Source: Spirochaetia bacterium (GTDB lineage: Bacteria > Spirochaetota > Spirochaetia > SZUA-6 > Bin103). From it: a stretch of DNA of 64,000 bases. The notes beneath the pieces are model-generated. The model worked only from the letters and a program-made list of their open reading frames with translations. It made no database searches and had not been told where the DNA came from. The DNA is taken from positions 1,216,001 to 1,280,000 of the forward strand of contig CBDBOV010000004.1 in the NCBI GenBank assembly GCA_965208575.1, written 5' to 3'. The stretch's first letter is position 1, and each line of letters begins with the position of its first letter. The position numbers were made by a program, and so were the translations under genes. Below, in pieces: positions 11,095-62,260 of the stretch.

Positions 11095-11331
11095 GAAAGG
11101 GAGGCGGAGAACGAGGGGGGAGCGCGAGGGGGGAGACTCATAAATTGTGGATAAGTGGATAGGCTGCTGGGCGACCGGCCGGGTTGATTCAAGCACACCA
11201 ACGCGACCGGGGGCGTATCTGGTTGGTCGGCGCGGATGAGGAGGCGTCAACGGCAGGGAGGTGGTCGGTGCCGTGTCGTGTCGCTGACCGAAGAGGGGGC
11301 GGACGGGTCTGGAGGCGACTTCGGTGCTGGT

Positions 11332-11395
11332 GACACGGGGATGTCCAGACACCACCTCGTGTCGCGGAGAGGCCTTACAGCGCGGCTGAGGCGAC
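11332..11395 (-). repeat. 64-bp hairpin motif, copy 1
   Basis: 60/64 identical to 13304-13367; outer stem GACACG...CGTGTC. Confidence 0.85.
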
Positions 11396-11611
11396 ATTTC
11401 TTGACGCCGACCGTCTGGCTCACGGATATACGGGCGTCAGAGACGCTCAGAAGTCATTTGCCGAGCCGGGTGATGCCGCCCACGCCGCGAGCGGCGCGCA
11501 GGTTGCTGCGGAGCGCACGGAGCGAGGCGCCCCGGACAACTGCACCGAGGTGCGTTGCCCGGGGCAGGGTCATGACAATTCCCCACCGCCGGGACGGGGT
11601 AGGCGACGAGG

Positions 11612-13285
11612 TTGCGACACCGGAGCCGTCGGGATCGAACGGGGCGGAGGAGATGCTGTACCCCGCTGACGGACGGAGGGCGTAGCCCGACCGGAGTCAG
11701 CCGGCGCGGTGCCGTGGAGGCCACCGTGGACGACGCCGAGATGGCGGACCAGGCAGCCAAGCTGCTCGCTTCCGGGATGAGCGGCTCAGCCTGCGCTCGC
11801 GAACTCGGCATCCCGGTGAGCACCTTCAACGAGAACCGCCGCGCCGGCGTCATCACAGATCCCACCCGGGAGCCCGCCGCCAGCGCCGAGGTTGCGCCGG
11901 CGGCCACCACCACTGATCACCCGGTCAGCACCGCCGCCGCGGTCAGCGACCCGGCGGTCGCCACTGAGCGCGCCAGCCGCGACGCCCGCGACAAGCACGC
12001 GCCCATGGGCCGCGCGGCGCGCGACGTGGAACGCCGCACGCTCGCCAGAGCCGGCCTGCTGACCGAGGCCACACCAGCGTTCGTCGAGCCCGCCCACGCG
12101 GTCGCTGGCGGCGGCGTGCTGGCCGCACTGGCGATGCTGCTGCGCGAGGGCCTGCTCACCGCCGCCAACCGCCTGTTCCGCCTGCCGGCCGGATTCTACG
12201 GCCTGACCACCATCCTCCTGTTCGTCGCCTGCATGACCCTGGCCCGGGTGCGCAACCCCGAGAGCCTGCGCTACCAGGCACCCGGCGAGTGGGGCGCCAT
12301 CCTCGGCCTCGACCGCTGTCCGGAGACCAAGACGCTGCGCCGCAAGATCAGGCTGCTGGCCAGCGCCGAGCACACCGTGCGCGATTGGCAATCGGTACTG
12401 GCGCGTACCTGGGCCAGCGAGCACGACGACGACTGGACGACGCTGGCCGTGGATGGCCACGTGAAGGTGTACACCGGGCGCAACGGGCGGTTGCCGAAAC
12501 ACTTCGTCGCACGCCAGAAGCTGTGTCTGCCGGCGTCGGTGAGCTACTGGATCAACGCCCTCGGCGGCGCACCGCTGCTGTGCCTGCACAAGGCGCTGGA
12601 CCCGAAGCCGGTGAATGCGATCAAGCACGACGTGGTGCCGCAGTTGCAGCACCTGGGGGTGGTGACCGAAGCGGCCCCCGACCTGACCGGAGCACCGGCC
12701 GGTACCCCGCAGCTGACCCTGGTGTTCGACCGCGAGGGCTGGAGCCCGGACCTGTTCAAGCGCCTGGCCCGGCGTGGCATCGCCTGCATCACCTGGCACA
12801 AGAACTTCAACGGCGCGGACTGGCTGCCGGAAGACTTCCACACCTTCGAGGTACCGATCCATGGTCCCGCCGGCACCAGCACGACTGCGGTTGATCTGGC
12901 CGAGCAGCCGATCATGCTGCGCAACGGGCTGGTGGTGCGCCAGATCCGGCGGCGTCTGGCCAACGGTCGTCAGGTGGCGGTGATCACCACGCACCCGCAG
13001 ATGCCGTTGGCGCAGGTCGCCGGCGCCATGTTCTCGCGCTGGTCGCAGGAGAACTTCTTCAAGTACCTGCGCGAGCAGTTCAACCTTGACGCGCTGCCGA
13101 GCCATGACCTTGCGCCGCCGGAGCCCGACGCACGGGTCGTGAACCGGTGCGCCGGGCCCTGGAAAAGAGCATCAGGCGGGTACGCAGCCGGCTGGCAGCG
13201 GTCCGCAATCGCCTCGCCGAGGCACTGCAGGGACGGCACCGGGACTCCGCCACCCGGCTTACGGTCGCGGATAAAGTTGCACTGA
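11612..13285 (+). pseudogene. Truncated and frameshifted transposase (HTH plus DDE-like, unclassified family)
   Basis: ARELGIPVST HTH, PGEWGAILGLDRCPE, AVDGHVKVYTG, VFDREGW, RWSQENFFKY; frameshift near 13145; both ends look missing. Confidence 0.75.
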
Positions 13286-13303
13286 ATTGCATGGTTATGC
13301 ATA

Positions 13304-13367
13304 GACACGGGGGTATCCAGACACCACCTCGTGTCGTGGAGGGGCCTTACAGCGCGGCTGAGGCGAC
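13304..13367 (-). repeat. 64-bp hairpin motif, copy 2
   Basis: Direct repeat of 11332-11395, just downstream of the transposase stop at 13428. Confidence 0.85.
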
Positions 13368-13427
13368 GTTTTCTCATCGCTGACCGCCCATTCTCCGATT
13401 ATCGACCGTCAGACCCGCCTGAGAGGG

Positions 13428-14702
13428 TCATTTTGCCGTGCGACCGCTGCCACCACGCTCCTCGCTCGGTGTTTGCACCGTGCTTGGTGCGGCCTTGGCG
13501 GTCTTGCTGACGTTCAGCTGCAGCAGATCCTCGGTCAACCTGGTCAGCTCGCGCTTGAGGGCGACCGGATTCAACGTCGCGTACTGCTGCTTGAGGCGGT
13601 TCTTCACCTTCTCGCTCACCGACTCGGAGGCCAGCATGCGGTGATACGGCGTCTGCGGGTCGTCATAGATGCGGCGCACCTTGCTGCCGGTGCGGGTTTT
13701 CTTCACCAGCTTCACCGAGGGATAGAAGAAGTTCACCAGCAGGCACAGCGGGCGGTATATCGCGTTGAGGGCAGCCAGTTCCCGGTCGGTGTCGTAACGC
13801 AGGTGGCCGACCGCCCGTCGCACCACGTGGCCATTCTTCTGCTCGACGTAGCAGGTGTCGTTCTTGCGATGCGGGCGACCCCGAGTGAACGTGATGCCGT
13901 GCGCTTCGCAATAGCGCAGCAAATGATGATTGATGAACTCGCTGCCGTTGTCGGTGTCGATCCCCCGCATCACGATCGGCAGGCTCTGCCGGGCAGCGTC
14001 GATCGCCTCGTGGGTCCAGCGCTGCGCCTTGTTCTGCACGCCGTACAGGTCGACCCAGCCGGTGTCAACGTCGGTGATGGTGAGCGTGTGGCAGAAGTCG
14101 CCTGACGCGTTGCCGCCTTCATGGCCCACCAAGTCGATCTCGAAGAAGCCCGGCTCCTGCTCGTCCCAGTCAGCGAAGGTTCGGATCGCGATCTGATCCT
14201 TCAGGAGGGTGCCCGGCTTGGTGTGCGTGCGACCCTTCAGGCGCAGCCGTGCGCGCTCCTGCTGCAGCAGCCGGTCGATGGTCGCGGCGCTGATGGTCTG
14301 CAGCTTGCCGCGCACCGCTGCGGTCAGCTCGATCTCGCCGAACGACTCCAGCGTCGGCAGCATGGTGCGCAGCACGACCACCAGGCGCTTGCCGCACATG
14401 CAGTCGAACACGTACCAGATCAGCTTCAGAGCGACCAGCACCTCCTGGTCGTAGCGCCGCGGTCGCACGCGGCGCTGGGCAGGCCGCGGACGCCCGACCA
14501 CCAGCTTCACCAGTGTGCCGTCGACTCGCACCATGCGGGTCCGTCCCCACCAGGTCAACAGATGGATCGCGTACTTGCGCTGGTACCCGGTCGACTCGAC
14601 GAACTCGTCGAGTATGCGCCCCTTCTCCTTCTTGCCCGCCCGACGATACCGCTGCGCGTGCTGCTCGGTGAGCTCTCGCCTTGAACTCATCTTCAACCCC
14701 AT
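13428..14702 (-). CDS. DDE integrase-core transposase (ISNCY/IS481-like)
   Basis: RYRRAGKKEKGRILDEF, PGFFEIDLVGH, DTDNGSEFIN, YVEQKN. Confidence 0.9.
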   Translation of the reverse strand: MGLKMSSRRELTEQHAQRYRRAGKKEKGRILDEFVESTGYQRKYAIHLLTWWGRTRMVRVDGTLVKLVVGRPRPAQRRVRPRRYDQEVLVALKLIWYVFDCMCGKRLVVVLRTMLPTLESFGEIELTAAVRGKLQTISAATIDRLLQQERARLRLKGRTHTKPGTLLKDQIAIRTFADWDEQEPGFFEIDLVGHEGGNASGDFCHTLTITDVDTGWVDLYGVQNKAQRWTHEAIDAARQSLPIVMRGIDTDNGSEFINHHLLRYCEAHGITFTRGRPHRKNDTCYVEQKNGHVVRRAVGHLRYDTDRELAALNAIYRPLCLLVNFFYPSVKLVKKTRTGSKVRRIYDDPQTPYHRMLASESVSEKVKNRLKQQYATLNPVALKRELTRLTEDLLQLNVSKTAKAAPSTVQTPSEERGGSGRTAK

Positions 14703-14768
14703 CTCCTCCGGAACCTCCTCACGTCCCTCGGAGAGGCTCCAACCGGACCCGGAAGGTCCAGCCCGTTC

Positions 14769-14824
14769 GGTTAGATTTTTAGATGAGGCATGCTTTCGCT
14801 ACGGTTAGATTTTCGATGAGTCAA
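14769..14824. repeat. Terminal inverted repeat, two subrepeats (14769-14790, 14803-14824)
   Basis: GGTTAGATTTT..ATGAG(G/T)CA twice, inverse of 11038-11094. Confidence 0.85.
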
Positions 14825-14878
14825 TGCGCGCTGTTGACGCGGGCGGCGCTCGGCGCGATGCTGGACGGCGAGACCGAC

Positions 14879-15739
14879 ATGTTGACTGCAAAGCAGGTAC
14901 GGCAGTACCACGACGACGGCTACCTGGCGGTACCGGATGTTCTCAGCGGCGACGAGGTCGCGGAACTGCAGCGTGTGACCGACGAGCTGGTGGAAGCCAG
15001 CCGGAACGTCGGCGCGCACACCGAACTATACGACCTGGAACCGAGCCACTCACCCGCCGAGCCGCGTGTGCGGCGCCTCAAGAGTCCCAACCTTCACCAC
15101 GACGTATACGACCGCACGCTGCGCCACGCCGCCATCGTCGCGATCGTGGATCAACTCATCGGCCCCGGCGTGCGCTACCAGTCCACCAAGCTGAACATGA
15201 AGTCGGCCGGTTACGGGAGCCCGGTGGAGTGGCACCAGGACTGGGCGTTCTACCCGCACACCAACGACGACATCCTGGCGGTGGGCGTGGCCATCGACGC
15301 CATGACCGAGGACAACGGCGCCATGATGGTGGTGCCGGGCAGCCACCGCGGGCCGCTGTACGATCACCACCAGGACGGCTACTTCGTGGGCGCCGTGACC
15401 GACCGCGACGTGGACCCGGGGGAGGCGGTGCTGCTGGAGGTTCCGGCCGGCGGCATCTCCCTGCACCACGTGCGCACCCTGCACGGCTCGGCCCCCAACC
15501 GGTCGTCGCGGCCGCGACGGCTGCTGCTGCTGGAAATGTGCGCCGTCGATGCCTGGCCGCTGGCGAGGCCGGTGGAGTGGGAGTCGTTCAACGGCCGCAT
15601 TCTGCGCGGCGCGCCGACCAACACGCCGCGGGTCACGCCGGTGCCGGTGCGCATCCCCCTGCCCAACCATGAGCGCCAGGGATCGATCTACGAGGTGCAG
15701 AGCAAGCTGGCCGACCCGGTCCTCGCGGGAGCCGGATAG
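14879..15739 (+). CDS. PhyH family dioxygenase
   Basis: YHDDGYL, WHQD, VPGSH, HGSAPN..R. Confidence 0.92.
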   Translation: MLTAKQVRQYHDDGYLAVPDVLSGDEVAELQRVTDELVEASRNVGAHTELYDLEPSHSPAEPRVRRLKSPNLHHDVYDRTLRHAAIVAIVDQLIGPGVRYQSTKLNMKSAGYGSPVEWHQDWAFYPHTNDDILAVGVAIDAMTEDNGAMMVVPGSHRGPLYDHHQDGYFVGAVTDRDVDPGEAVLLEVPAGGISLHHVRTLHGSAPNRSSRPRRLLLLEMCAVDAWPLARPVEWESFNGRILRGAPTNTPRVTPVPVRIPLPNHERQGSIYEVQSKLADPVLAGAG

Positions 15740-15746
15740 CAGCCGC

Positions 15747-17825
15747 TCAGCCCGCGACGGCGCAATTCACGTCCACCGTCACCGGGGCGGCGACGGTGCG
15801 GCGCAGTTGCACCAGCATGCCGGCCGGGGCCGGCCACCGCTGCCAACGGAACTCCGTGCCCACCGTCAGCGGGGCGCCGTCCACCATGCACGCGACGGCC
15901 TCCGGCCTGCCGACGGCCGCTGCCGCCGCGCACGTGTCGCCGGCAATCGCGGCATCCTGGTCGCGCCCGGCGCCCGGACCGCTGATCAGGAATACCGGCT
16001 GCGCGCGCGCGACCGGCCCGGGGTCGAAGGTGAAGCGGGATTGCCCGGCCACCGCCTGCAGGCGGTAGGCGCCGATGGCGCGGTCGAAACCGCCGGCGAG
16101 CGCGGCCCGGTCGGCCGGCTGCTCGCGTTCCGCGTCCGCGTCGAGCAGTGCGCCGCGGTGGGCGGTCAGCCGCGCTGGCACCTGGAACTGGTCGCGCAAC
16201 AGCAGGGCGGCGGCCTCCGCGGCAGCCGTGTGCGCGGTCGCCAGCCAGCTTACCGCGATCCAGAAGCCGTACTCGACGCCGGGTACGGTGGGTGCGACGC
16301 GCAGGCCGTAGCTGGCGGTGAGGCCGCGCGGGCAACGCCAGCCGAGTACCCGTCCCGGCGCAGCGCCGCCGACGTGGCTGAGCCCGCCGAGCGCGGCAAC
16401 CAGGTGCCAGGCAGCGCCAGCCACCCGCAACGGGAACACCAGCGCCGCGGGGTAGAGACGTGCGCAGGCGCCGGCGGCGAGCGTTGCCGTCAGGCCGCCC
16501 GCCGGCAGCTCCCAGGCGGCAAAGGAGCGCTCTTCGGCGGCGGCGATCCGCGCCGGCCCGCTCATGGCGCGCCCGAGCAGGTCGAAATCGGGCCCCACGC
16601 TGCGCCGCACCCGCACCGCCGCCCAGTCCGCCACCACCAGGCGGTCGTCGTAGCACACCGCGTGGCCGCGCGCGTAGCCGCGCACGTCGGCGTCCTGGTC
16701 GACGAAGCGCGGCATCGGTCCGCGCCAGCGCACCAGGTCGGCCACCGCGCCGCGCGCGAGCAGATCGAGCGCCGCCCCCTGCGTGAACTTGATCTCGGAG
16801 CCGCCGATGTGCCCCACCTGCAGGCCGCTCTCCCAGAACACGTTGTTGCGTGGATCGAGGCGCGCCGGCTGCTGCCCGGGGTCGGCGCACAGGTGGAGTT
16901 GGTGGACGTTGCCGGGCCGCACCACCGCCGCGTAGGCGCCGCGCCGCACCTCGTGGCGCGCCACCCACTGGCTGGACACCACGCCGAACGAGTGCCACAC
17001 CGCCGCCGCGGGACCGGCCTCGGCAAACAGGCCGACGATCTCCACGCCGGCCATGAAGCCGTCCTCGGCGCCCAGCAGCACGGCGCCGTCCAGCAGCACC
17101 TCGTGGCGCGTACCGTTGAAGTGCCAGCGCAACTCGCGCGGCGCCGCGGGCTCCGCGGCGGCCCGGGCCTGCGCCAGCGTACGCGGGCCGTGTTCGGGAT
17201 CGGCATCCGCGGCGCGCCGCAGCAGGCGCACGGCCAGGTGGCCGCGGCGGCTGCACAACTCCAGGCGCAGGTGGTGGGCGTCGTTGTAGTGGCGCGCGAT
17301 CAGCCCCCAGCGTTGCGGTGCCGGCGCAGCCGGCGCCGTGAAGCACGCCGTCACCGTGGCGTGCATGGCCGCGTCCACGAACAGGTAGGAGCACTCGCCC
17401 GGCCGGTCCGCCGCACCGCGCTCCGCGCCGTCGCGTCCCCGCCCGCCGGCTGCGCCGTCCGGCGCGATGCCGGCGGGCCCGCCGTCGCTTGCGCGCCACG
17501 CGCCGTCCCGGTGCCAGGCGGTGCCCGGCGGCATCCAGTCCGCCGGGGCCGCGTCGAAACGCGCCTCGATGCGGCGCCGTGCGACCACCTCGACCGCGCC
17601 GTCGGCGCCGGGTGCGCGGTAATGACCGGGCGGCAGTACGCTCCAGCCCCGGCCCGGTCCGCCGAAGCGGCCGTCGCGCACGTCCACGCACACCGCCGCG
17701 CGTCCGGCCGCGAGCGGATGGCTGCGCCACACCGCGCGGCCGGCGCCATCCGACACCACCACCACCTGTCCAGGCGTCGCCCCGCCGGGCAGCAGCAGCG
17801 TGGGGTTGCCGTGGCCGCTCGTCAT
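15747..17825 (-). CDS. Hypothetical protein (692 aa)
   Basis: Long ORF with protein-like composition that fills the gap; no family recognised. Confidence 0.65.
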   Translation of the reverse strand: MTSGHGNPTLLLPGGATPGQVVVVSDGAGRAVWRSHPLAAGRAAVCVDVRDGRFGGPGRGWSVLPPGHYRAPGADGAVEVVARRRIEARFDAAPADWMPPGTAWHRDGAWRASDGGPAGIAPDGAAGGRGRDGAERGAADRPGECSYLFVDAAMHATVTACFTAPAAPAPQRWGLIARHYNDAHHLRLELCSRRGHLAVRLLRRAADADPEHGPRTLAQARAAAEPAAPRELRWHFNGTRHEVLLDGAVLLGAEDGFMAGVEIVGLFAEAGPAAAVWHSFGVVSSQWVARHEVRRGAYAAVVRPGNVHQLHLCADPGQQPARLDPRNNVFWESGLQVGHIGGSEIKFTQGAALDLLARGAVADLVRWRGPMPRFVDQDADVRGYARGHAVCYDDRLVVADWAAVRVRRSVGPDFDLLGRAMSGPARIAAAEERSFAAWELPAGGLTATLAAGACARLYPAALVFPLRVAGAAWHLVAALGGLSHVGGAAPGRVLGWRCPRGLTASYGLRVAPTVPGVEYGFWIAVSWLATAHTAAAEAAALLLRDQFQVPARLTAHRGALLDADAEREQPADRAALAGGFDRAIGAYRLQAVAGQSRFTFDPGPVARAQPVFLISGPGAGRDQDAAIAGDTCAAAAAVGRPEAVACMVDGAPLTVGTEFRWQRWPAPAGMLVQLRRTVAAPVTVDVNCAVAG

Positions 17826-17976
17826 CCGCCGGCTCCGTCACGGCGGCCGATCCGGGCGCTCCGTCCGGTGCGGTTGCTTCGGCCGCCGCGGGCGCACCGG
17901 GCGTGATTTGCACAGCGCGCCGGAATCGCGTAACGTGCTTTCATATCGCTTGATCGGAACGACGGGAGGTCGCAAA

Positions 17977-18216
17977 GTGGCTGAAATCTCCGAAATCATC
18001 CTGAGTGAGATCGAAGGGAGCGGCATCGACGCCTCGGACCTGGGGGTGGAGATCCAGCGTGGCAAGGGCCTGTTCAATCGTCGCAAGGTGCTCAACGTGT
18101 TCGGCGCAGTTCATTCGGAACCCGACCATCAGGCGGTGATGCGGGTCGCGCAGCGCCATGCCGGCGACAACTACGACGTCACCGACTCGGTAGCCGTGCA
18201 CCCTCGCAAGCACTAG
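17977..18216 (+). CDS. Small hypothetical protein, possibly BON-like
   Basis: GGAGGT RBS before GTG; V..FGAV.S...V.D.V.V pattern. Confidence 0.6.
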   Translation: MAEISEIILSEIEGSGIDASDLGVEIQRGKGLFNRRKVLNVFGAVHSEPDHQAVMRVAQRHAGDNYDVTDSVAVHPRKH

Positions 18217-22174: not shown

Positions 22175-22211
22175 GAGACTCTCCTGTCCATAAGGTAGCG
22201 GCGGTTCGCTG

Positions 22212-49516: not shown

Positions 49517-49915
49517 GATTCTCCTCCGCAGTCTACGTTCCGCGCGGTGTGAGGCGCGGTCACGAGCATGAACGATCCGCGGCCCACGCTCCATAACGAC
49601 ATGATAGCGGGTTCCACGCAGAATGTCCCGGCGCCGCGGGCCGCTACGCCTCAACTTTCAGCCGGGGGCCAACTGATGCCGTCGCGGCCGGCGAGGTGCC
49701 GTACTTCGCTGGCGACAGGGCGACATGCAAGCGGTGGGTCAGATGGGCGCGGCGGTCGCGTGGCGGGTCGCCCACAGGCGAGTCGAGGTGGATCTGCGGT
49801 TCGAGGCACCACTCGAAGCGCTCGAAGCCACCACGCCGATGGCGGCGCTCCGCCACGGACACACGTACCGCCACGTCCAGCTTGCCCACCAGCGCGGTCT
49901 CCTGAGAAACAACAA

Positions 49916-51304
49916 TCAGGCGGCCTCCGGGACAAGCTCATAACCGAGTGCGTGTGCCTGCCTTCGGAGCCGGCGTTCAAAGCGGCGCCGGTCCTGGCGC
50001 TCCTCGGCGGCGAGGATGCTGTCATCGTAGGCCACGCGATGCGTGATCAGATGGTAGATGATCCGAGCCAGTTTATGCGCGACTGCAGTGGTCGCTTCGG
50101 GAGTACCCAGACGCGCCCGCATGCGGCGGAAGTGCTGGCCCAGGGCCGATGGGCTGCGGTACAACGACTGGGTCGCCCAGTGCAGCGCCTGGGCGGCCCG
50201 ATTGGTGCCCCGACCGGTGTGCGAGCTGATGATCTTGCCGCCGGTGATCTGGTTGTGGGGGCACAGGTGCAGCCAGGAGGCGAATTGCGGTGCGGTCGGA
50301 AAGCGGGACAGTTCCGGGCCGAGTTCGGTGAACAGAACCAGCGCCGTACTTTCGCCGATGCCGGGAATCAGCGTCAGGTCAGTGCCGAACAGGTGCGTAA
50401 GGTGGCCGCGCAGGTCGAACCGCTTGGCCGGTGACTCGGTTGGCGCCTCGGGCTCCGCATCGATTCCCTCATCCGGTGGGTCGTCGCCCACCGCGCCGGG
50501 TGGCTCGCTGCTGGCTTCGAACGCGCGGATGCCGGCTTCGATTTCCTGATCGCACTCCGTGATGAGTTGTTGGTAGTGGGCATAGGTCGCTCGCGCGTGC
50601 CGCAACGCCAACAGGTGCTCGGCGCGCCAGTCGCCCTGCAGCGCCTTGATCAAGGTCTCGCGGCTGGCTTTGATCCGCCGGTCGGCCAGAGCGGCCAACC
50701 GCGCCGGATCCCGCTCACCCGCCAGGATAGCGTCCGTAATGGCCAGACCGGTCGTCCCCGTCAGGTCAGAGATGGCATGGTGCAGATGCACGTTCATCTG
50801 GCTGTACGCCTTCTGCATGTGCAACACGCTGCGCGACGCCATCTTGATCAAGGTGTCGCGATGGCGCAGCACCGAGCGCAGTGCACACACCTCGTCGGCA
50901 GGGCGGAATGAGCCGCGCAGCAATCCCACCGAGTGCAGGTAGCGCAACCACTCGCAGTCGGCCACGTCGGACTTCCGACCGGGTACCGAGTGCACGTGAC
51001 GCGCATTCACCAGCACCACGTCGAAGCCGTGTGCCTCCAGGATCTGATACACCGGAATCCAGTACACACCGGTGGACTCCATCGCCACCGTGGTGACCTC
51101 GCATTCCTTGAGCCAGTCGGCCAAGGCGTGCAGGTCCGCGGTGAACGTAGCAAAGTTCCGGATCGGGTCCGGGTCGCGCTCCGGGCGCACAGCCGCGTAC
51201 ACCTCGGTAGCGCCTATGTCCAAGCCGGCAGCGTCCGGGTGCATCACCTTTGGTTGCGCTGTGCGACTGCCCTTGCCCTTGCGTCTGTGTCTGCGTCGTG
51301 CCAT
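49916..51304 (-). CDS. IS110 DEDD recombinase
   Basis: GLDIG, AMESTG, KSDVAD, IPGIG, AVAHKLAR; GGAGG RBS before ATG 51304. Confidence 0.95.
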   Translation of the reverse strand: MARRRHRRKGKGSRTAQPKVMHPDAAGLDIGATEVYAAVRPERDPDPIRNFATFTADLHALADWLKECEVTTVAMESTGVYWIPVYQILEAHGFDVVLVNARHVHSVPGRKSDVADCEWLRYLHSVGLLRGSFRPADEVCALRSVLRHRDTLIKMASRSVLHMQKAYSQMNVHLHHAISDLTGTTGLAITDAILAGERDPARLAALADRRIKASRETLIKALQGDWRAEHLLALRHARATYAHYQQLITECDQEIEAGIRAFEASSEPPGAVGDDPPDEGIDAEPEAPTESPAKRFDLRGHLTHLFGTDLTLIPGIGESTALVLFTELGPELSRFPTAPQFASWLHLCPHNQITGGKIISSHTGRGTNRAAQALHWATQSLYRSPSALGQHFRRMRARLGTPEATTAVAHKLARIIYHLITHRVAYDDSILAAEERQDRRRFERRLRRQAHALGYELVPEAA

Positions 51305-51329
51305 GAAACCTCCGCTACGACTGAGTGGT

Positions 51330-51507
51330 GCGGCCAAGGCGTGTGTAGCAGGTATTCTCCTGAACGGGATGATCGCCACCCGGCCGCGCCGGCTGACAAC
51401 CTCACCAATGACTACGCCACCCGCCCCGGGGCCAAGCTCTTGAACGGGTTCGCAGAACGTAACGCCAGTGACGCGCCGGCCTACTTTCGCGCTCCACCCA
51501 GAACTCT
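51330..51507 (-). ncRNA. Putative bridge RNA, copy 1
   Basis: Two loops TCAYTGG-hairpin-CCGTTCARGAG; guide segments at 51437-51443 and 51357-51363; TATAGT at 51514-51519; ends approximate. Confidence 0.7.
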
Positions 51508-51588
51508 GCCCACACTATAGCTCACCCTTGTTTCTTTCATGACTGCGCCGGCCCAGGGGCCGGTGGGATAGCTCCTGAGAAACAACAA

Positions 51589-52977
51589 TCAGGCGGCCTC
51601 CGGGACAAGCTCATAACCGAGTGCGTGTGCCTGCCTTCGGAGCCGGCGTTCAAAGCGGCGCCGGTCCTGGCGCTCCTCGGCGGCGAGGATGCTGTCATCG
51701 TAGGCCACGCGATGCGTGATCAGATGGTAGATGATCCGAGCCAGTTTATGCGCGACTGCAGTGGTCGCTTCGGGAGTACCCAGACGCGCCCGCATGCGGC
51801 GGAAGTGCTGGCCCAGGGCCGATGGGCTGCGGTACAACGACTGGGTCGCCCAGTGCAGCGCCTGGGCGGCCCGATTGGTGCCCCGACCGGTGTGCGAGCT
51901 GATGATCTTGCCGCCGGTGATCTGGTTGTGGGGGCACAGGTGCAGCCAGGAGGCGAATTGCGGTGCGGTCGGAAAGCGGGACAGTTCCGGGCCGAGTTCG
52001 GTGAACAGAACCAGCGCCGTACTTTCGCCGATGCCGGGAATCAGCGTCAGGTCAGTGCCGAACAGGTGCGTAAGGTGGCCGCGCAGGTCGAACCGCTTGG
52101 CCGGTGACTCGGTTGGCGCCTCGGGCTCCGCATCGATTCCCTCATCCGGTGGGTCGTCGCCCACCGCGCCGGGTGGCTCGCTGCTGGCTTCGAACGCGCG
52201 GATGCCGGCTTCGATTTCCTGATCGCACTCCGTGATGAGTTGTTGGTAGTGGGCATAGGTCGCTCGCGCGTGCCGCAACGCCAACAGGTGCTCGGCGCGC
52301 CAGTCGCCCTGCAGCGCCTTGATCAAGGTCTCGCGGCTGGCTTTGATCCGCCGGTCGGCCAGAGCGGCCAACCGCGCCGGATCCCGCTCACCCGCCAGGA
52401 TAGCGTCCGTAATGGCCAGACCGGTCGTCCCCGTCAGGTCAGAGATGGCATGGTGCAGATGCACGTTCATCTGGCTGTACGCCTTCTGCATGTGCAACAC
52501 GCTGCGCGACGCCATCTTGATCAAGGTGTCGCGATGGCGCAGCACCGAGCGCAGTGCACACACCTCGTCGGCAGGGCGGAATGAGCCGCGCAGCAATCCC
52601 ACCGAGTGCAGGTAGCGCAACCACTCGCAGTCGGCCACGTCGGACTTCCGACCGGGTACCGAGTGCACGTGACGCGCATTCACCAGCACCACGTCGAAGC
52701 CGTGTGCCTCCAGGATCTGATACACCGGAATCCAGTACACACCGGTGGACTCCATCGCCACCGTGGTGACCTCGCATTCCTTGAGCCAGTCGGCCAAGGC
52801 GTGCAGGTCCGCGGTGAACGTAGCAAAGTTCCGGATCGGGTCCGGGTCGCGCTCCGGGCGCACAGCCGCGTACACCTCGGTAGCGCCTATGTCCAAGCCG
52901 GCAGCGTCCGGGTGCATCACCTTTGGTTGCGCTGTGCGACTGCCCTTGCCCTTGCGTCTGTGTCTGCGTCGTGCCAT
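51589..52977 (-). CDS. IS110 DEDD recombinase
   Basis: Same protein sequence as copy 1. Confidence 0.95.
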   Translation of the reverse strand: MARRRHRRKGKGSRTAQPKVMHPDAAGLDIGATEVYAAVRPERDPDPIRNFATFTADLHALADWLKECEVTTVAMESTGVYWIPVYQILEAHGFDVVLVNARHVHSVPGRKSDVADCEWLRYLHSVGLLRGSFRPADEVCALRSVLRHRDTLIKMASRSVLHMQKAYSQMNVHLHHAISDLTGTTGLAITDAILAGERDPARLAALADRRIKASRETLIKALQGDWRAEHLLALRHARATYAHYQQLITECDQEIEAGIRAFEASSEPPGAVGDDPPDEGIDAEPEAPTESPAKRFDLRGHLTHLFGTDLTLIPGIGESTALVLFTELGPELSRFPTAPQFASWLHLCPHNQITGGKIISSHTGRGTNRAAQALHWATQSLYRSPSALGQHFRRMRARLGTPEATTAVAHKLARIIYHLITHRVAYDDSILAAEERQDRRRFERRLRRQAHALGYELVPEAA

Positions 52978-53002
52978 GAAACCTCCGCTACGACTGAGTG
53001 GT

Positions 53003-53180
53003 GCGGCCAAGGCGTGTGTAGCAGGTATTCTCCTGAACGGGATGATCGCCACCCGGCCGCGCCGGCTGACAACCTCACCAATGACTACGCCACCCGCCCC
53101 GGGGCCAAGCTCTTGAACGGGTTCGCAGAACGTAACGCCAGTGACGCGCCGGCCTACTTTCGCGCTCCACCCAGAACTCT
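53003..53180 (-). ncRNA. Putative bridge RNA, copy 2
   Basis: Guide segments at 53110-53116 and 53030-53036; ends approximate. Confidence 0.7.
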
Positions 53181-54613: not shown

Positions 54614-55509
54614 CCGCCCGCCTGCGCACCGCGTTCAGCGACCGCTCGCTCGGCTCGTACTCGTTCGACGTCGTCAACGTGGTGCTGCTGCTCGGGGTGG
54701 TGTTCGTCACCCTCTACCCGATGTACTACATCCTCATCGTGTCGTTCTCCGACGGCAAGGAGGTGCTGCTCGGGCGGGTGCGCTTCTGGCCGCGCGGCAT
54801 CAACCTGCAGTCGTACCAGATGGTGCTGCGCGACGACACCGTGATCCGCTCGCTGTTCAACTCGATCCTGTACACGTCGGTCGGCACCGCCATCAACCTG
54901 GTGCTGTCCACCCTGTGCGCCTACCCACTGGCGCGGCGCGATTTCTCGGGGCGCAAGCTGCTGACCCTGTACGTGGCGATCACGATGTTCTTCCAGGGCG
55001 GGCTGATCCCGCTCTACCTGGTGGTGCTGCAGCTCGGGCTGCTCGACACCATGTGGGCGATCGTGCTGGTGCCGGGCATCAACGCCTTCTACATGTTCAT
55101 CATGCGCACCTACTTCCAGGGCCAGCCGACGGCCCTGCACGAGGCGGCGATCATCGACGGCGCCAACGATCTGCAGATCCTGGCGCGCATCGTGGTGCCG
55201 CTGGCCAAGCCGATCATGGCCACCATGCTGCTGTTCTACGCCGTCCAACACTGGAACAGCTTCTTCCACGCGCTGATATTCCTGACCGAGAAGCGTCTCT
55301 ACCCGCTGCAACTGATTCTGCGCAGCGTGGTGGTCGAGGCCACATTCGAGCAGATGAACGACATCGGCGCGGCCACCGACTTCATGGTGCTGGAGAAGAC
55401 GATCCGGTTCTCGGTGATCATGGTATCGACACTACCGATTCTGCTGGTGTATCCCTTCCTGCAGAAATATTTCGTGAAGGGCGTCATGATCGGCGCCCTG
55501 AAGGGATAA
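54607..55509 (+). CDS. Carbohydrate ABC permease
   Basis: GGLIP.Y, EAAIIDGA, YPFLQKYFVKG...G. Confidence 0.95.
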   Translation: MVTARLRTAFSDRSLGSYSFDVVNVVLLLGVVFVTLYPMYYILIVSFSDGKEVLLGRVRFWPRGINLQSYQMVLRDDTVIRSLFNSILYTSVGTAINLVLSTLCAYPLARRDFSGRKLLTLYVAITMFFQGGLIPLYLVVLQLGLLDTMWAIVLVPGINAFYMFIMRTYFQGQPTALHEAAIIDGANDLQILARIVVPLAKPIMATMLLFYAVQHWNSFFHALIFLTEKRLYPLQLILRSVVVEATFEQMNDIGAATDFMVLEKTIRFSVIMVSTLPILLVYPFLQKYFVKGVMIGALKG

Positions 55510-55554
55510 CAACCCCAATCGACGCGCCTCACAGAGCGCGACAAAGGAGATTCA

Positions 55555-57069: not shown

Positions 57070-57086
57070 GGGCCGCTTGCAGGACG

Positions 57087-57121
57087 CAGCACGCGCCGGG
57101 CCAGAAACCGGGCGCGTGCTG
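57087..57121. terminator. Stem-loop after the ABC operon
   Basis: CAGCACGCGCC...GGCGCGTGCTG; no U-tract. Confidence 0.5.
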
Positions 57122-57125
57122 TGCC

Positions 57126-57322
57126 TCAGGACCGCTCCACGACCAGCGGGCGTATGCTCTCCACTTCGGGTCCGAGAGTCTGTGCCGCGTCCCGCAGGTC
57201 CACCGCGCGCTGCGCCACGGCCACGCCTCCGCCGCCCAGTCTTGACGATCTGGCCGTAGTCGCGGCCGACCGCCTGGCAGTGGCCGCGCCGCGCCGCCAG
57301 CTTGTGGGCCGGGCAGAACGAG
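57126..57322 (-). pseudogene. Possible LLM-class flavin oxidoreductase remnant
   Basis: One frame reads HKLAARRGHCQAVGRDYGQIVKT. Confidence 0.4.
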
Positions 57323-57739
57323 CTACACCAACCCCTTCGCCTCGCGGGGCATGCGGCGGCGCTTCTTCATCTGCGCCAGCCCCTCGGCAGTGCCGTCGTG
57401 GAGGGTGTTGAGCCAACGGTCGAGGGGCAGCAGGTTGTTCCCATAGTTGCACTCGAAGTAGCGGTGATGCAGCCAGTGGTAGTAGGAATCGATCGACATG
57501 CGCGTGTCGGTGCTGGTGTGCACCACGAGCTCATCGAAGCCGGCGTGCCCCAACGCCGGATTCAACGCCGCACGATTCATGATGAAGAGCAGATAAATCG
57601 GGTGCCCCGGCACTACCAGCAAGATGAGCCAACGAGTGAAGTAGAGCAGGTGCTCGATCGGGTGCATCGCCATGAGCTGGTCCCGGAAAAACGGACGGTA
57701 TGGTAGAGTGTATCCAAGGCCACGAGGAGGGCCAGCAAG

Positions 57740-58024
57740 ATGGCGACGAAGAGGCGTCGGTTCACAGCGGAGTTCAAGGCGAAGGTAGTGATTGAGGCGC
57801 TGCGGGGAGACCGTACGATCCAGGCGATCGCGGCCAAGCACGAAATACATCCGAACCAGATCAGCAGTTGGAAGCGGCAGGCTCAGACCGGTCTGCGGGA
57901 CCTGTTCGCCGACGGCCGGAGCCGGCGGCAGAAGGAGCACGATGAGACCATTCACGACCTGCATGCCAAGATCGGGGAGTTGACCGTGGAGCGCGATTTT
58001 TTAGCACGCGGGCTCGGGCGCTGA
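57740..58024 (+). CDS. IS3 OrfA
   Basis: RRRFTAEFKAKV HTH; slippery T TTT TTA at 57997-58003. Confidence 0.92.
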   Translation: MATKRRRFTAEFKAKVVIEALRGDRTIQAIAAKHEIHPNQISSWKRQAQTGLRDLFADGRSRRQKEHDETIHDLHAKIGELTVERDFLARGLGR

Positions 58025-58044
58025 GCCGGGCCGAGCGACGAGAG

Positions 58045-58881
58045 ATGATCGACCGCGAGCACGAGGGTCTGAGCATCAGCCGGCAGTGCCGCCTGATCGG
58101 GCTGAACCGGTCGACGCTGTACTACCGAGCGGTGGGCGAGAGCGCTGACACGCTCGCGTTGATGCGCCGCATCGACGAACTTTATCTGGAATGTCCGTTC
58201 TACGGCAGCCGGCAGATGATGCGCCATCTGGCACGCGAGGGAAAGCGGGTCGGTCGGCACCGGGTGCGGCGGCTGATGCGGCTGTTGGGGCTGGAGGCGA
58301 TCTACCGCAAGCCACGCACCAGCGTCGCGCACCCGGACCATCGGGTGTATCCGTATCTGCTGCGAGGGCTTACGATTGAGCGCCCGAACCAGGTGTGGTG
58401 CGCGGACCTGACCTACATCCCGGTGCAGGGAGGATTTCTGTACCTGGTGGCGATCATGGACTGGGCGAGCCGGCGGGTGTTGGCCTGGCGGCTGTCCAAC
58501 ACGATGGACACCTCCTTCTGCCTGGAGGCGTTGGCGGACGCTCTGGAAGACTTCGGCATTCCCGAGATCTTCAACACCGATCAGGGCAGCCAGTTCACCA
58601 GCATCGCGTTCACCGGCCAGTTGGAGGCGACCGGGATACGGTGCTCGATGGACGGGCGCGGTCGTTGTCTGGATAACGTATTCATCGAACGGTTGTGGCG
58701 CTCGCTGAAGTACGAGTCGGTATACCTGCACGATTTGGAGGATGGCTTCGAGGCGCAGCGGGTGATCGACGGGTGGATGGCATTCTACAACGAGACCCGA
58801 CCACACTCGGCGCTCGGCGGGCGTACGCCCGCGGAAGCGTACCGCGACGGGGTGGCGGAACAACAGCAGGAGGTGGCGTAG
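58045..58881 (+). CDS. IS3 OrfB (DDE), probably expressed by -1 frameshift
   Basis: WCADLTY, NTDQGSQF, IERLWRSLKYE. Confidence 0.93.
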   Translation: MIDREHEGLSISRQCRLIGLNRSTLYYRAVGESADTLALMRRIDELYLECPFYGSRQMMRHLAREGKRVGRHRVRRLMRLLGLEAIYRKPRTSVAHPDHRVYPYLLRGLTIERPNQVWCADLTYIPVQGGFLYLVAIMDWASRRVLAWRLSNTMDTSFCLEALADALEDFGIPEIFNTDQGSQFTSIAFTGQLEATGIRCSMDGRGRCLDNVFIERLWRSLKYESVYLHDLEDGFEAQRVIDGWMAFYNETRPHSALGGRTPAEAYRDGVAEQQQEVA

Positions 58882-59046
58882 CGAACAGGAACGGCAGGCG
58901 GTTGGCATGGGGTGCAAGGGCATCCGAGGACCAACGGGAGCGCGAGCAGTGGGGACGAAGTATCCACATATCCACAGGCTCGCTCACCCCCTCCCCGGAC
59001 CCCACCCCCATTACCGCCGCCTGATCATCTCGACCAGGAGGGTGGG

Positions 59047-59075
59047 TTGACAACGAACGAGATGCACTCTACAAT
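59047..59075 (+). promoter_or_regulatory. Outward-facing sigma70 promoter inside the IS3-A right end
   Basis: TTGACA-17-TACAAT. Confidence 0.7.
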
Positions 59076-60193
59076 ATCCCATCCACTGTCCAACCTATCG
59101 GGTCCACGTCACCAACCCCGACCAGGGGCCGACGTTGACGTTGCGGTGATGCTTTCAGCGAACCCAGCAAAGGCCCGCGAGAAGGTCGCTTCGCTGGGAA
59201 TCGCCCCGATACTCTCCCGGCCACACAGGCGGCGCAGCGCCCGGTCGTTGGCCAGCCGCTCGCGCAGCGCTCTGGTGGTGTCGATTTGGAACACCGCCTT
59301 GGCGATGAAGGCGCGCGCCAACGCCGCCCGATCCTGTTGCGGACGACCGCGCAGGCTGCGCCCACAGGGCAGCTGTTGTTCCACCCGGACGAACTCGAGC
59401 ACGGTAATGAACAACTGGTAGCGTTCTCCCAGAGGACCGAGTGAGGGTGCCCCATTTTGGTGGACAGGTAACTACTGAGGTGGCGGGGTAGTGCATGGCA
59501 GGTTGAGGTGTATTCGGTTGGTTGTCAACCCGCGCCTCCACGACGCCTCCCAGGATTCCACGGCAAATAAATGGTGGCGGTAAAGGGGTGGGGGTCCGGG
59601 GGAGGGGTTGAGGGTGCCCCGTTTCGGTGGACAGGTAACTTCTGAGGTGGCGGGGTAGTGCATGGTAGGTTGAGGTGTATTCGGTTGGTTGTCAACCCGC
59701 GCCTCCACGACCCCCACGACACGACGCCTCCCGAGATTCCACGGCAAATAAACGGTGGCGGTAAAGGGGGTGGGGATCCGGGGGAGGGGTGGGATTTGCC
59801 TGTGGATATGTGGACAAGTCCGCATCAAGCTGGGGGTGGTGGCGGTGTGGATGGCCGTGAGCGGCGCCGGTGTGCGCGGTCAGGAGATCGCACGACCGTG
59901 ATCAGTGCTGGCGGCATGGACAGCGGGTGCCGGGAGTCGAAACGGAGCGCCTGAGGGACGATTCGGGGTTCAGCAAGGGTATCCGGGACCACCTGCTCGC
60001 GAGGAGCGGCCTTACAGGGCCGCTGAGAGCGCCAGTTCGCGCCGCACCGGCAAGATGTCGGCCCGGGTGGGGCTGCAGCCGCCGGGAGCGGCGCGGTCGA
60101 GCCGGTCCGGGGCGCCCGTGTGGGGACGGACCCGCGAGCGGTGCGCCGCTTGGAAACTATGCAGCCGTCGCAACGGGTCGGCAGCAGGTTGCC

Positions 60194-60487
60194 TCAGTCG
60201 CGCCCATACCCGCGTGGCGGCTCGACGCTCTCCAGAGCGCCAAGATCAAGCGCGCAAATCGCCTCCAGCTTGTCGCCGAGCGCGGTCTCCTGGAGCGCCT
60301 CGGGCAGGTTGTCGAGCCACGCTTGATACTCTCCCTGGAGGTCGAGCAGGGTGCGCACCGCATCCTGCCAGCGCTGCGGTCGGGAGCGCCGGTCGTGCGG
60401 TCGGCGGTACTGCGCTCGCGGCTGCTGCGCCTTGCGCCGCGCTCGATAGCGCCGTTGGCGTTGCGCATTGGTCAACGCCATGGGCAC
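60194..60487 (-). CDS. IS passenger protein of unknown function (basic TNAQRQRRYRAR N-terminus)
   Basis: Identical protein in both diverged IS copies, with synonymous DNA differences. Confidence 0.8.
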   Translation of the reverse strand: MPMALTNAQRQRRYRARRKAQQPRAQYRRPHDRRSRPQRWQDAVRTLLDLQGEYQAWLDNLPEALQETALGDKLEAICALDLGALESVEPPRGYGRD

Positions 60488-60677
60488 TGATCACCGTTAC
60501 GTAACGGCTCCTGGTCCAGCACCTCAGACGCTGCATCCCCGCTGCGCTGCGTGCTCACCGCGACGCCGGTCGGCGCGCGCAGCCGACTCGGACGCCAAGC
60601 GGTCCGGAGAGGGCCAATTGCCGACGAATATTGTCCCTGGAGGGGGCCGAGCGCCAGCATCGGCACCACGACGATGC

Positions 60678-61529
60678 TCATGCTGCCGCTCCTGTCCGAG
60701 TGGCCTCGAACGCGACCGGCGACTGGTAGCCCAGCGCCGAGTGACGCCGGCGACGGTTGTAGAACCCCTCGATGAACTCGAATATTGCCAAGCGCGCCTC
60801 GGCACGGCTGCGAAATCGGCTCCGATCAAGCAACTCGCACTCCAGGGTCGCGAAGAAACTTTCGCACATCGCGTTGTCGTATGCATCGCCCACCGAGCCC
60901 ATCGAGGGACGCACGCCGGCCTCTTTGCAGCGCATCCCGAACGCAATCGAGGTGTACTGAGAGCCCTGGTCGCTGTGGTGGATCACCTGCTCGGGTCGCC
61001 GCTGCCAGAGCGCCATGTCCAGCGCCTCCAGCACCAGTTCCGTGCGCAGATGACCGGCCATCGACCAGCCCACTACCCGGCGGCTCCAGGTATCCAGCAC
61101 CACCGCCAAGTACAGAAACCCCGCCCACGTCGGCACGTACGTAATGTCGGCCACCCACAATTGGTCGGCCCCGGCCGCGGTGAAGTTCCGATCCACCAAG
61201 TCTGGCGCCGGTCGGGTCGCCGCGCCACGCGTTGTGGTCCTGGGCCCGCGGCGGCGACTGGCCCCTTCGATGCCGGCCTGCTTCATCAGCCGCGCCACCC
61301 GCTTGTGCCCGACTCGTTCGTTCTCACCCTGCAACTCGGCGTGGATGCGCGGCCGACCATACACCTCGCGGTTGGCTCTCCATATCGCCGTGATACGCTC
61401 CCGCAACTGTCCATCGCGCCGCTCTCGCGCCGACGGCTCGCGGCGCACCCACGCATAGTAGCCGCTGGCGGAGAGACCCAGCACTCGACATATCGTGCGT
61501 ACCGGCCAGCGCGCCTGGTTGGCTTTCAC
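60678..61529 (-). CDS. IS3 OrfB (DDE)
   Basis: WVADITY, HHSDQGSQY, CESFF. Confidence 0.93.
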   Translation of the reverse strand: MKANQARWPVRTICRVLGLSASGYYAWVRREPSARERRDGQLRERITAIWRANREVYGRPRIHAELQGENERVGHKRVARLMKQAGIEGASRRRGPRTTTRGAATRPAPDLVDRNFTAAGADQLWVADITYVPTWAGFLYLAVVLDTWSRRVVGWSMAGHLRTELVLEALDMALWQRRPEQVIHHSDQGSQYTSIAFGMRCKEAGVRPSMGSVGDAYDNAMCESFFATLECELLDRSRFRSRAEARLAIFEFIEGFYNRRRRHSALGYQSPVAFEATRTGAAA

Positions 61530-61840
61530 GAACTCGAACCCCGCTCGGGGATCGAGTCGCTCTCCCGTGCGAACCAGGCCGCTGCTTTTTTTAGGATGTC
61601 ACGCTCGATCCGCAGTTGCTTGTTCTCTCGCCGCAGTCGGCGCAGCTCCTGGCGTTCATCGCTGCTCAACCCGTCCTCGCGGCGTCCAGCGTCCCGCTCC
61701 TGCTGCGCCACCCAGTTGCGGATCGCGCCCGCAGACGGCTCGTACTCCAGCGCCAACTCCTCGGGCGTGCGCCCAGACTGCACCAGCTCGACCATCTGCT
61801 GGCGAAACTCAGGCGCGTATGGTCGATGTGTCTTCGGCAT
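61526..61840 (-). CDS. IS3 OrfA
   Basis: HTH plus leucine zipper; AAAAAAAG frameshift signal at 61585-61592. Confidence 0.92.
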   Translation of the reverse strand: MPKTHRPYAPEFRQQMVELVQSGRTPEELALEYEPSAGAIRNWVAQQERDAGRREDGLSSDERQELRRLRRENKQLRIERDILKKAAAWFARESDSIPERGSSS

Positions 61841-62260
61841 CGTTGCCTCCTCATTCCGCCTCACTCCTAATGTGTCCACGAAACTGGGGCAACTCCAGGG
61901 TGGGATTTGCCTGTGGATATGTGGACAAGTCCGCATCAAGCTGGGGGTGGCGGCGTGGATGGCCGTGATCAGTGCTGGCGGCATGGACGTAGCGGGTGCC
62001 GGGAGTCGAAACGGAGCGCCTGAGAGACGATTCGGGGTTCAGCAAGGGGTATCCGGAGACCACCTGCTCCCGTGGAGCGGCCTTACAGGGCCGCTGAGAG
62101 CGCCAGTTCCGCGCCGCACCGGCAAGATGTCGGCCCGGGTGGTGCTGCAGCCGCCGAGCGCGGTGCGGTCGAGCCGGTCTGGGGCGTCCGTGGGGGGCGG
62201 ACCCGCGAGCGGTGCGCCGCTTGGAATTGTGCAGCCGTCGCGGGTCGGCAGCAGGTTGCC

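Follow-up and report, generated by a model that had tools for sequence, protein, structure and literature searches.

Conserved sub-terminal motifs in the non-coding right-hand regions of insertion sequences of different families in a Spirochaetia bacterium

Introduction

Insertion sequences (ISs) are usually treated as minimal elements, i.e. a transposase gene (tnp) and two ends, and a locus at which ISs of different families carry the same non-coding motifs raises the question of how these motifs got there and what reads them. The locus in question lies in a stretch of 64,000 nt from a Spirochaetia bacterium (assembly GCA_965208575.1, contig CBDBOV010000004.1, positions 1,216,001-1,280,000 of the forward strand; hereafter the window), which harbours an ISNCY-type element as well as the IS3-family elements IS3-A and IS3-B, the latter in two nested copies. 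The original prediction for this locus was of a structured, non-coding cassette downstream of tnp, shared by unrelated IS families and serving as a mini-origin or priming signal, or as a non-coding RNA (ncRNA). Our analysis bears out that different IS families harbour two common motifs inside their right ends, here termed motifs A and B, and that the order of the two does not vary. We consider it highly likely that the ‘cassette’ is an acquired, separately evolving, non-coding and sub-terminal right-hand region (hereafter the module) of three nested DDE ISs, and are just as confident that only motif A, motif B and a strand bias, i.e. a tnp-sense strand rich in C and poor in G, were kept across the families.

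Results and discussion

Two motifs are shared by insertion sequences of different families

The motifs and coordinates described for the cassette proved real (Table 1), but a free-standing unit did not: because target-site duplications (TSDs) of CCA, ACCC and CTCG bound the units, the motifs lie inside transposing elements, where they occupy the stretch from the last gene to the cognate right inverted repeat. This internal position was absent from the original prediction, as were the presence of a passenger gene in IS3-B (here termed ORFx, after open reading frame) and the likeness of motif B to the inner part of the IS3 inverted repeats. Given the minus-strand gene encoding P0001 as the ISNCY tnp, the order tnp, motif A, motif B and C-tract as well as the orientation are equal in both families. 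The transposases, predicted to be unrelated, show no pairwise likeness (E 0.92), but both possess a Pfam rve DDE domain. Since the transposases and the inverted repeats differ, the shared parts are probably read by a common factor, and we infer that this reader would be one or more host factors, or ORFx acting in trans.

The ISNCY transposase P0001 matched 293 plasmid records by tblastn with 39-47 % identity, and 13 of the 30 rows listed were annotated as ‘ISNCY family transposase’. Homology to annotated ISNCY transposases and the presence of terminal inverted repeats place the element in this family; the NCBIfam ISNCY models gave no match. Both ends consist of two 22-bp repeats each, i.e. 11039-11060 and 11073-11094 at one end and 14769-14790 and around 14803-14823 at the other, with an inverted match of 79 % over 66 nt between 11037-11101 and 14825-14762. 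These inverted repeats flank the module; no target duplication was recognised for this element. IS3-A and IS3-B, in turn, show the orfA/orfB arrangement with a slippery run, the rve domain, TG...CA repeats and the TSDs expected of the IS3 family, and matched the NCBIfam IS3 models with 352 and 282 bits, while their OrfB proteins are only 37 % identical to each other.

Motif A was confirmed at all four predicted sites by repeat families (D5/D6) and alignment. It comprises around 64 nt, i.e. a hairpin and an invariant 20-mer, and all four copies agree at 18 of the 20 positions of the predicted core. Between the ISNCY element and IS3-B, motif A is 69-83 % identical (blastn E 2.5e-10 to 1.3e-4), and significant likeness is limited to motifs A and B. 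The spacer between them is not more alike between the families than shuffled sequences are, the observed scores being reached by 96 and 272 of 500 shuffles. Within the ISNCY pair, motif A is conserved at 60 of 64 positions vs 52 of 74 in the adjoining common 3' untranslated region (UTR; Fisher p 4e-4). The four copies are real, but represent only two lineages, i.e. the IS3-B pair is nested and the ISNCY pair lies within one rearranged element.

A coding function of motif A was rejected, because the IS3-B copies differ by two 1-nt indels and one minus-strand frame has a stop codon inside the invariant 20-mer. There is also no third-position bias, with 3 of around 12 differences at third codon positions as read by eye from the alignment. 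The region from motif A to motif B was translated as well, and the protein collection contained no spurious ORFs similar to it in length.

Motif B has a length of 16 nt and is made up of two abutting 8-bp repeats which resemble DnaA boxes. A pattern search allowing up to two mismatches found it at the four predicted sites, i.e. four matches vs 0.49 expected, a number reached by none of 100 shuffles, and the ISNCY and IS3-B copies are identical at 14 of 16 positions. As predicted, the ISNCY copy includes a perfect DnaA-box 9-mer, which is the sole perfect one in the window (0.08 expected). The likeness to DnaA boxes is enriched in motif B, which accounts for seven of the window's nine near-consensus 9-mers (at most one mismatch from the perfect box) vs 2.8 ± 1.6 expected under a first-order Markov model, the four copies together holding one perfect match and six 8/9 matches. 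All five occurrences of TATCCACA in the window fall within motif B, and motif B itself lies 45-200 nt inside the element tip.

Acquisition and probable separate history of the right-hand regions

There are compact relatives of all three elements without the 3' region, so the module is an add-on, as the original prediction had assumed when it described it as acquired. In the compact ISNCY relatives, which are plasmid-borne, the right repeat overlaps or abuts the tnp end (L009 and L008) or starts 47 nt after the stop codon (L007). The closest plasmid relatives of IS3-A (L013 and L014) and of IS3-B (L011) measure 1254-1298 bp, with 40-61 nt from the orfB stop codon to the tip, whereas IS3-A and IS3-B extend for 230 and 1069 nt after orfB, respectively, with extra motifs and, in IS3-B, a passenger gene. 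In other respects they resemble the known IS3 family members IS911, IS2 and IS3, i.e. in the two-ORF frameshift layout, the TG...CA repeats, the TSDs of 3-4 bp and the outward promoter of IS3-A.

The homology of IS3-A to its compact relatives ends at 58949-58994, i.e. at motif B, and its distal unit has around 45 nt in common with its own left end (z 2.1). Between IS3-A and IS3-B, a fragment of a DUF772 gene (IS5-type transposase N-terminal domain; 59109-59414, minus strand) is caught, and the region can therefore be regarded as an IS graveyard.

The IS3-B core is 68.9 % identical at the DNA level to the compact 1254-bp element L011 (its positions 1235-2488; 850 of 1233 columns), and this homology stops at 60638. 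Directly after orfB, where the L011 repeat aligns, a degenerate remnant of the right repeat is found (60638-60665), and 1029 extra bases separate position 60638 from the right repeat actually used. Judging from this alignment, IS3-B is an example of IS growth through a surrogate end around 1 kb downstream.

Copy 1 of IS3-B is inserted into copy 2, 23 nt past the copy 2 motif B and 4 bp past the IR-like tip (IR, inverted repeat) that follows motif B, and its own sequence displays the uninterrupted target. A head-to-tail dimer with motif B as the functional right end was considered and rejected, as the two 4-bp TSDs fit nesting. The copies are 99.2 % identical in the core and 98.9 % in ORFx, vs 69-91 % in the non-coding 3' region (59609-60196 compared with 61898-62263 plus 59442-59608). 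Identity is 90.6 % directly past the ORFx stop codon, 94.2 % in motif A, 69.4 % in the spacer, where the copies also differ by an indel of 42-46 nt, and 85.2 % in the distal unit; motif B is unchanged at 16 of 16 positions. Because identity falls so abruptly at the ORFx stop codon, the comparison suggests that the 3' segment has a history of its own, having been either exchanged or subject to hypermutation. The distal unit holds an IS3-A-type tip just inside the IS3-B-type repeat; its derivation from an inverted IS3-B left end is unsupported (z -1.1).

ORFx precedes motif A in both IS3-B copies, and is absent from the ISNCY element and from IS3-A. Its product has an arginine-rich N-terminus and a confident, all-helical AlphaFold model (pLDDT 89.2), for which the PDB offered no look-alike (best E 2.8). 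There was no match to Pfam or NCBIfam, the Atlas search returned only ‘hypothetical protein’ clusters, and the plasmid collection gave no tblastn match with either ORFx or its distant member P0130. The family is nevertheless large, i.e. 991 proteins with E ≤ 0.001 among 994 candidates (71-97 % identity among the 120 matches listed), and 1385 cluster representatives at 50 % identity. Among the longer relatives, 4 of 27 possess a Pfam IstB_IS21 domain and P0265 is a fifth IstB-linked relative, so that homologues fused to IstB or directly following it are found in five protein records from other contigs. Therefore, these records indicate that ORFx homologues normally follow the istB gene of IS21-family elements, and a third IS family is thus involved. 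IS3-B accordingly looks like a compact IS3 element plus a captured part of an IS21-type 3' region, now using a repeat 1 kb downstream.

The comparison with IS21 (istA-istB) has two sides. ORFx homologues are tied to IstB, and the ISNCY ends have two direct repeats as in IS21. The 8-bp period of motif B, however, is unlike the R1/R2 layout of IS21, in which, according to PMC10122671, the repeats are 23 bp apart, and the window contains no remnant of istA or istB. A likeness of the N-terminal part of P0290 to IstA was considered but dropped, since Pfam gave no match. A perfect 14-bp palindrome just upstream of ORFx is also kept in relatives, where homologues with an N-terminal extension show it in translated form as a recurring motif. 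It may be an operator.

The 3' region of the ISNCY element is split by the Transposase_29 fragment, which is flanked by both motif A copies. The homology of these copies is restricted to 11332-11466 vs 13304-13441 (79 % identity), and the copy at 13304 lacks motif B, the module being cut off there. The boundary at 13303/13304, where the fragment stops, coincides precisely with the base of the hairpin of motif A. With this boundary and the duplicated motif A region in the P0152 contig described below, motif A may be a breakpoint or an insertion hotspot. Outside both ISNCY ends, 14835-14876 shows a direct likeness of 42 nt (81 %) to 10875-10913, which is not adjacent to the left end.

Given this history, the whole right-hand region could be a non-functional mosaic, i.e. 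debris of nested insertions and recombination, in which motif B is a vestigial or duplicated inner part of an IS3-type repeat, ORFx and motif A are a captured IS21-type 3' fragment, and persistence reflects shared descent or short-patch gene conversion rather than function. Nested and broken elements fill the region; the IS3-B core ends at the degenerate repeat and a second one is used 1 kb on; the IS3-B distal unit combines tips of both IS3 types; the homology of IS3-A to its compact relatives stops at motif B, where their own repeat lies; motif B has GTGGACA in common with each of the four terminal repeats of IS3-B; and ORFx is linked to istB elsewhere. In addition, the motif A core was found in its context at none of six loci among 185,579 species genomes (see below). 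Debris should decay evenly, yet the spacers are randomised while motif A (69-83 %) and motif B (14 of 16) are kept between families, both motifs are the best-kept parts of the fast-diverging IS3-B 3' region, and there is no reason why an IS3-type site should be kept by an ISNCY transposase. We regard a mosaic without function as rather unlikely, although it is the main rival of the control region proposed below.

A possible 3' control region read by host factors

In all modules, the tnp-sense strand contains 45-56 % C and 12-24 % G over at least 200 nt. The GC skew of ten 200-nt windows across the modules ranks between the 95.9th and the 99.9th percentile of the whole stretch, eight of the ten reaching at least the 98.9th, and three of its seven G-quadruplex-type motifs are located in the IS3 C-tracts. 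What follows the stop codon is thus a long, untranslated, C-rich and G-poor RNA, as in Rho utilization (rut)-like sites. IS1 and IS2 carry Rho-dependent polar terminators, which are likewise long untranslated C-rich, G-poor stretches of the sense strand; we know of no counterpart of motifs A and B in these terminators.

It is tempting to speculate that the module is a 3' control and insulation region for the transposase transcript, read by host factors and ending or insulating transcription, and we favour this explanation tentatively. At the end of the message, the hairpin of motif A would serve as an RNA 3'-end, pause or stability element. The untranslated C-rich, G-poor tract of at least 200 nt could allow Rho to load and to stop transcription before the right inverted repeat and, in IS3-A, a Rho-type stop would also fall before the outward promoter. 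Motif B would be a protein site, for which DnaA is the best candidate, acting as a roadblock or as a sensor of the replication state; the IS3-type transposase may be an alternative reader. The anatomy, the acquisition, the conservation islands and the composition are observed; transcription termination, the involvement of Rho and binding by DnaA are inferred.

The predicted outward promoter at the IS3-A right end would drive transcription beyond the element tip and, once the ends are joined in a circle, towards orfA. Elements of the IS911/IS2/IS3 type normally possess junction promoters, whereas the promoter of IS3-A is complete rather than assembled across the junction.

Several observations weigh against such a control region. 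The distance between motifs A and B, predicted to be around 155-170 nt, is indeed 155 and 170 nt in two instances, but 113 nt in another and thus variable. IS3-A has motif B and a C-tract without motif A, motif A comes from two independent lineages only, and the likeness of the G-tracts between families is compositional only, the observed score being reached by 57 of 500 shuffles. A terminator-like hairpin followed by a T-run was detected at none of the motif A copies, and the strong sequence conservation of the 20-mer is atypical of an ordinary terminator. Folds of single motif A sequences are no better than those of shuffles on either strand (z -0.24 to -1.68), the RNAalifold consensus for the tnp-sense strand is weak, with an energy of -8.68 kcal/mol and a single compensatory pair among 12, and in a fixed alignment both sides changed in 1 of 18 pairs, a number reached by 432 of 500 shuffles. 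Hairpin 1 of IS3-B copy 1 carries two 1-nt deletions, and hairpin 2, a perfect 7-bp stem in IS3-B, has lost three of seven pairs in the ISNCY copies. As for motif B, its pair of DnaA-like boxes is contiguous and has a period of 8 bp, an arrangement unusual for DnaA arrays, and the motif resembles the inner IS3 inverted repeats, with GTGGACA in all four IS3-B terminal repeats.

Motif A as a possible structured RNA

Alternatively, motif A, or perhaps the whole 300-nt 3' region, could be a structured ncRNA in or antisense to the 3' UTR of tnp, acting as a regulator or as a guide together with ORFx or the transposase. The outer stem had been predicted to covary. In the two families, the same inner stem of hairpin 1 is indeed closed by outer stems that differ in sequence and measure 6 and 4 bp, but this requires a shift by two columns and is not supported by the fixed alignment. 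With random flanks, outer stems of at least 4 bp would arise with a probability of 0.025 and those of at least 6 bp with 0.002. Also in line with the prediction, the fold of hairpin 1 on the minus (tnp-sense) strand is not altered by the two positions at which the ISNCY copies differ. In the hand-drawn structure, 76.1 % of cells are paired vs 71.2 % in shuffles (6 of 500 reached the observed value), and the covariation score was matched by 92 of 500 shuffles, in two lineages only.

Further points in favour are the arginine-rich N-terminus of ORFx, its confident helical model without a solved look-alike, and the protein P0152, in which ORFx is again followed by motifs A and B, as well as P0298, in which it is followed by motif A only (see below). 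On the other side, the ncRNA proposed originally found no statistical support, considering the weak z-scores, the single compensatory pair among 12 and the absence of significant covariation, the structure of hairpin 2 is not conserved, and the ISNCY element and IS3-A lack ORFx. There was no Rfam match to the whole window at the gathering threshold, and at E up to 10 only eukaryotic microRNA (miRNA) and long non-coding RNA (lncRNA) models were reported, the best at 26 bits vs 80 needed. To our knowledge, DDE (rve) transposases do not use RNA guides, which also counts against a guide function.

A precedent is given by the IS110/IS1111 elements, whose non-coding regions can encode guide RNAs (bridge or seek RNAs) according to PMC11187229, and which share with the elements described here a sizeable conserved non-coding region beside the transposase gene. 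Those elements, however, have DEDD transposases and RNAs of well-supported structure, in contrast to the DDE (rve) transposases and the lack of a statistically supported structure here. Overall, the evidence for a folded RNA at motif A is weak, and we hold a structured RNA to be unlikely.

Motif B as a possible origin or transposase site

IS3-family copy-out-paste-in transposition needs replication, and motif B together with the hairpins had been thought to recruit replication to the copy-out intermediate, as a portable mini-origin or priming signal. The strong and enriched DnaA-box likeness of motif B would agree with this, as would the location of three of the window's seven G-quadruplex-type motifs, which lie beside motif B of the IS3 elements. 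An origin-like DnaA array was not observed, though: the boxes number only two and abut at a period of 8 bp, the surroundings are GC-rich and no AT-rich unwinding region is present. Furthermore, motif B lies 45-200 nt inside the tip, away from where replication of the intermediate is expected to start, and no likeness to a known origin or single-strand initiation (ssi) element was found, with no dedicated search beyond Rfam. This original proposal is therefore unsupported, and we consider it very unlikely.

A host DnaA recognition sequence within the end region of a DDE element has a parallel in Tn5/IS50, where, according to PMC3347997, the outside end and the mosaic end contain one DnaA site each. 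There, a single box sits inside the 19-bp terminus bound by the transposase, whereas here two abutting candidate boxes lie 45-200 nt inside elements of other families.

Motif B might also be an extra sub-terminal site for the IS3 proteins OrfA or OrfAB, modulating the choice of ends or expression, with the ISNCY copy as a passive hitch-hiker. The motif can be aligned to the inner portion of the repeats of IS3-B and is located where the native right repeat of the compact IS3-A relatives lies, and IS3-B copy 1 inserted next to the copy 2 motif B and the IR-like tip. Yet its conservation at 14 of 16 positions in an ISNCY element with unrelated repeats, as well as the differing tip-proximal 11-12 nt in all three contexts, argue against a transposase site, and we give this explanation a slim chance. 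Motif B as a site for a host protein, i.e. part of the control region outlined above, is the reading that we prefer.

The module beyond the window

The exact 20-nt core was found at six loci when one genome per species was scanned for 185,579 species, and the rest of motif A was present at none of the six, which are chance matches. The plasmid collection gave no match to either module region (blastn, distant mode). A covariance model (CM) built from the four motif A copies, as had been proposed, recovered only those four when applied to the window and eight further loci (96,702 bases), with an E of 0.57 for the next best match.

Indirect evidence of the module beyond the window comes from two read-through proteins encoded on other contigs, P0152 (331 aa) and P0298 (199 aa), which start as close ORFx homologues and continue with translated motif A. 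In P0152, the motif A region appears twice and is followed by motif B, and P0298 contains ORFx and then motif A only; both are translated sequences, and may thus be taken as a sign that the same order exists elsewhere.

A broader proposal would be a portable plug-in consisting of motif A, the DnaA-box pair, the C-tract and often ORFx, which moves among IS21, IS3 and ISNCY elements and couples expression or end usage to DnaA or the replication state and to Rho. We regard this as rather improbable. A miniature inverted-repeat transposable element (MITE) or another autonomous small unit was considered as well and rejected, as no bounding repeats were seen by eye and there were no solo copies in the window or in the loci L007-L014; the restriction of likeness to motifs A and B also argues against a MITE.

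Sub-terminal sites for host factors, Rho-dependent polarity and captured passenger DNA are known features of ISs. We found no description in the literature of a shared 3' module or conserved motif pair in IS3, ISNCY and ORFx-linked IS21 elements, which is not proof of absence.

Other features of the window

The coordinates of the elements and motifs are compiled in Table 1. Elsewhere in the window, two IS110-family (DEDD) elements are arranged head-to-tail at 49899-53052 on the minus strand at a distance of 1673 bp. A comparison over 300 nt showed them to be identical, and the IS110 copies (49916-53052) are unrelated to the motifs. Two coding tandem repeat arrays, presumably encoding repeat proteins, are located at 28787-29896 (nine units with a 102-nt period) and 23478-24499 (six units with a 120-nt period).

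Table 1. Elements, genes and motifs of the ISNCY and IS3 regions (positions refer to the 64,000-nt window)
Feature	Position	Strand	Evidence or remarks
ISNCY-type element, internally rearranged	11039-14823	-	Inverted ends
C-tract, ISNCY, between motif B and right repeats	11096-11138	-	50 % C, 12 % G (G-rich on +); skew at 99.9th percentile
Motif B, ISNCY	11146-11161	-	Pattern search; includes perfect DnaA-box 9-mer 11146-11154
Motif A, ISNCY, beside right inverted repeat	11332-11399	-	Repeat family and alignment; CM 81.3 bits
Transposase_29 (PF21804) ORF, truncated, between ISNCY motif A copies	11612-13285	+	Pfam E 5e-69, profile 6-360 of 562
Motif A, ISNCY, around 60 nt 3' of transposase stop codon	13304-13371	-	CM 87.5 bits
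ISNCY DDE transposase P0001, 424 aa	13428-14702	-	Pfam rve 36.9 bits
IS3-A, 1439 bp	57673-59111	+	orfA 57740-58024, orfB 58045-58881; Pfam and NCBIfam IS3; TSD CCA (3 bp)
Motif B, IS3-A (element without motif A)	58961-58976	+	Pattern search
C-tract, IS3-A	58987-59021	+	56 % C, 15 % G; G-quadruplex-type motif 58987-59009 on opposite strand
Sigma-70-like outward promoter, IS3-A right end	59047-59075	+	TTGACA-17 nt-TACAAT, 11/12 positions
Distal part of IS3-B copy 2, from C-tract up to right inverted repeat	59442-59608	-	Split off by copy 1; outer TSD CTCG
IS3-B copy 1, 2289 bp, inside copy 2	59609-61897	-	TSD ACCC (4 bp); ends, flanks
C-tract, IS3-B copy 1	59745-59793	-	50 % C, 12 % G; G-quadruplex-type motif 59766-59793 on +; skew at 99.9th percentile
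Motif B, IS3-B copy 1	59801-59816	-	Pattern search
Motif A, IS3-B copy 1	59972-60038	-	CM 77.3 bits
ORFx copy 1, 95 aa	60197-60481	-	Conserved passenger gene preceding motif A
14-bp perfect palindrome upstream of ORFx	60494-60507 and 62561-62574		Conserved as recurring translated motif in N-terminally extended homologues
IS3-B core	60638-61897	-	orfB 60678-61529, orfA, A7G slippery run around 61586-61595; homologous to compact 1254-bp L011
IS3-B copy 2, proximal part	61898-63964	-	Core, ORFx, motif A, motif B
Motif B, IS3-B copy 2	61912-61927	-	Pattern search
Motif A, IS3-B copy 2	62040-62109	-	Repeat family, alignment, CM
ORFx copy 2, 95 aa	62264-62548	-	Protein identical to copy 1

Conclusions

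If the right-hand regions are debris, the locus is a clean example of IS3 growth by means of a downstream surrogate end and DNA capture, which bears on gene mobilisation. ORFx also offers a handle on the uncharacterised third gene of a large IS21 subgroup, with its 1385 clusters at 50 % identity. If, on the other hand, the module is exchanged and under constraint, ISs would have regulatory parts in common, comparable to the accessory modules of plasmids, and transposition in several IS families could be gated together by host factors, e.g. DnaA or Rho.

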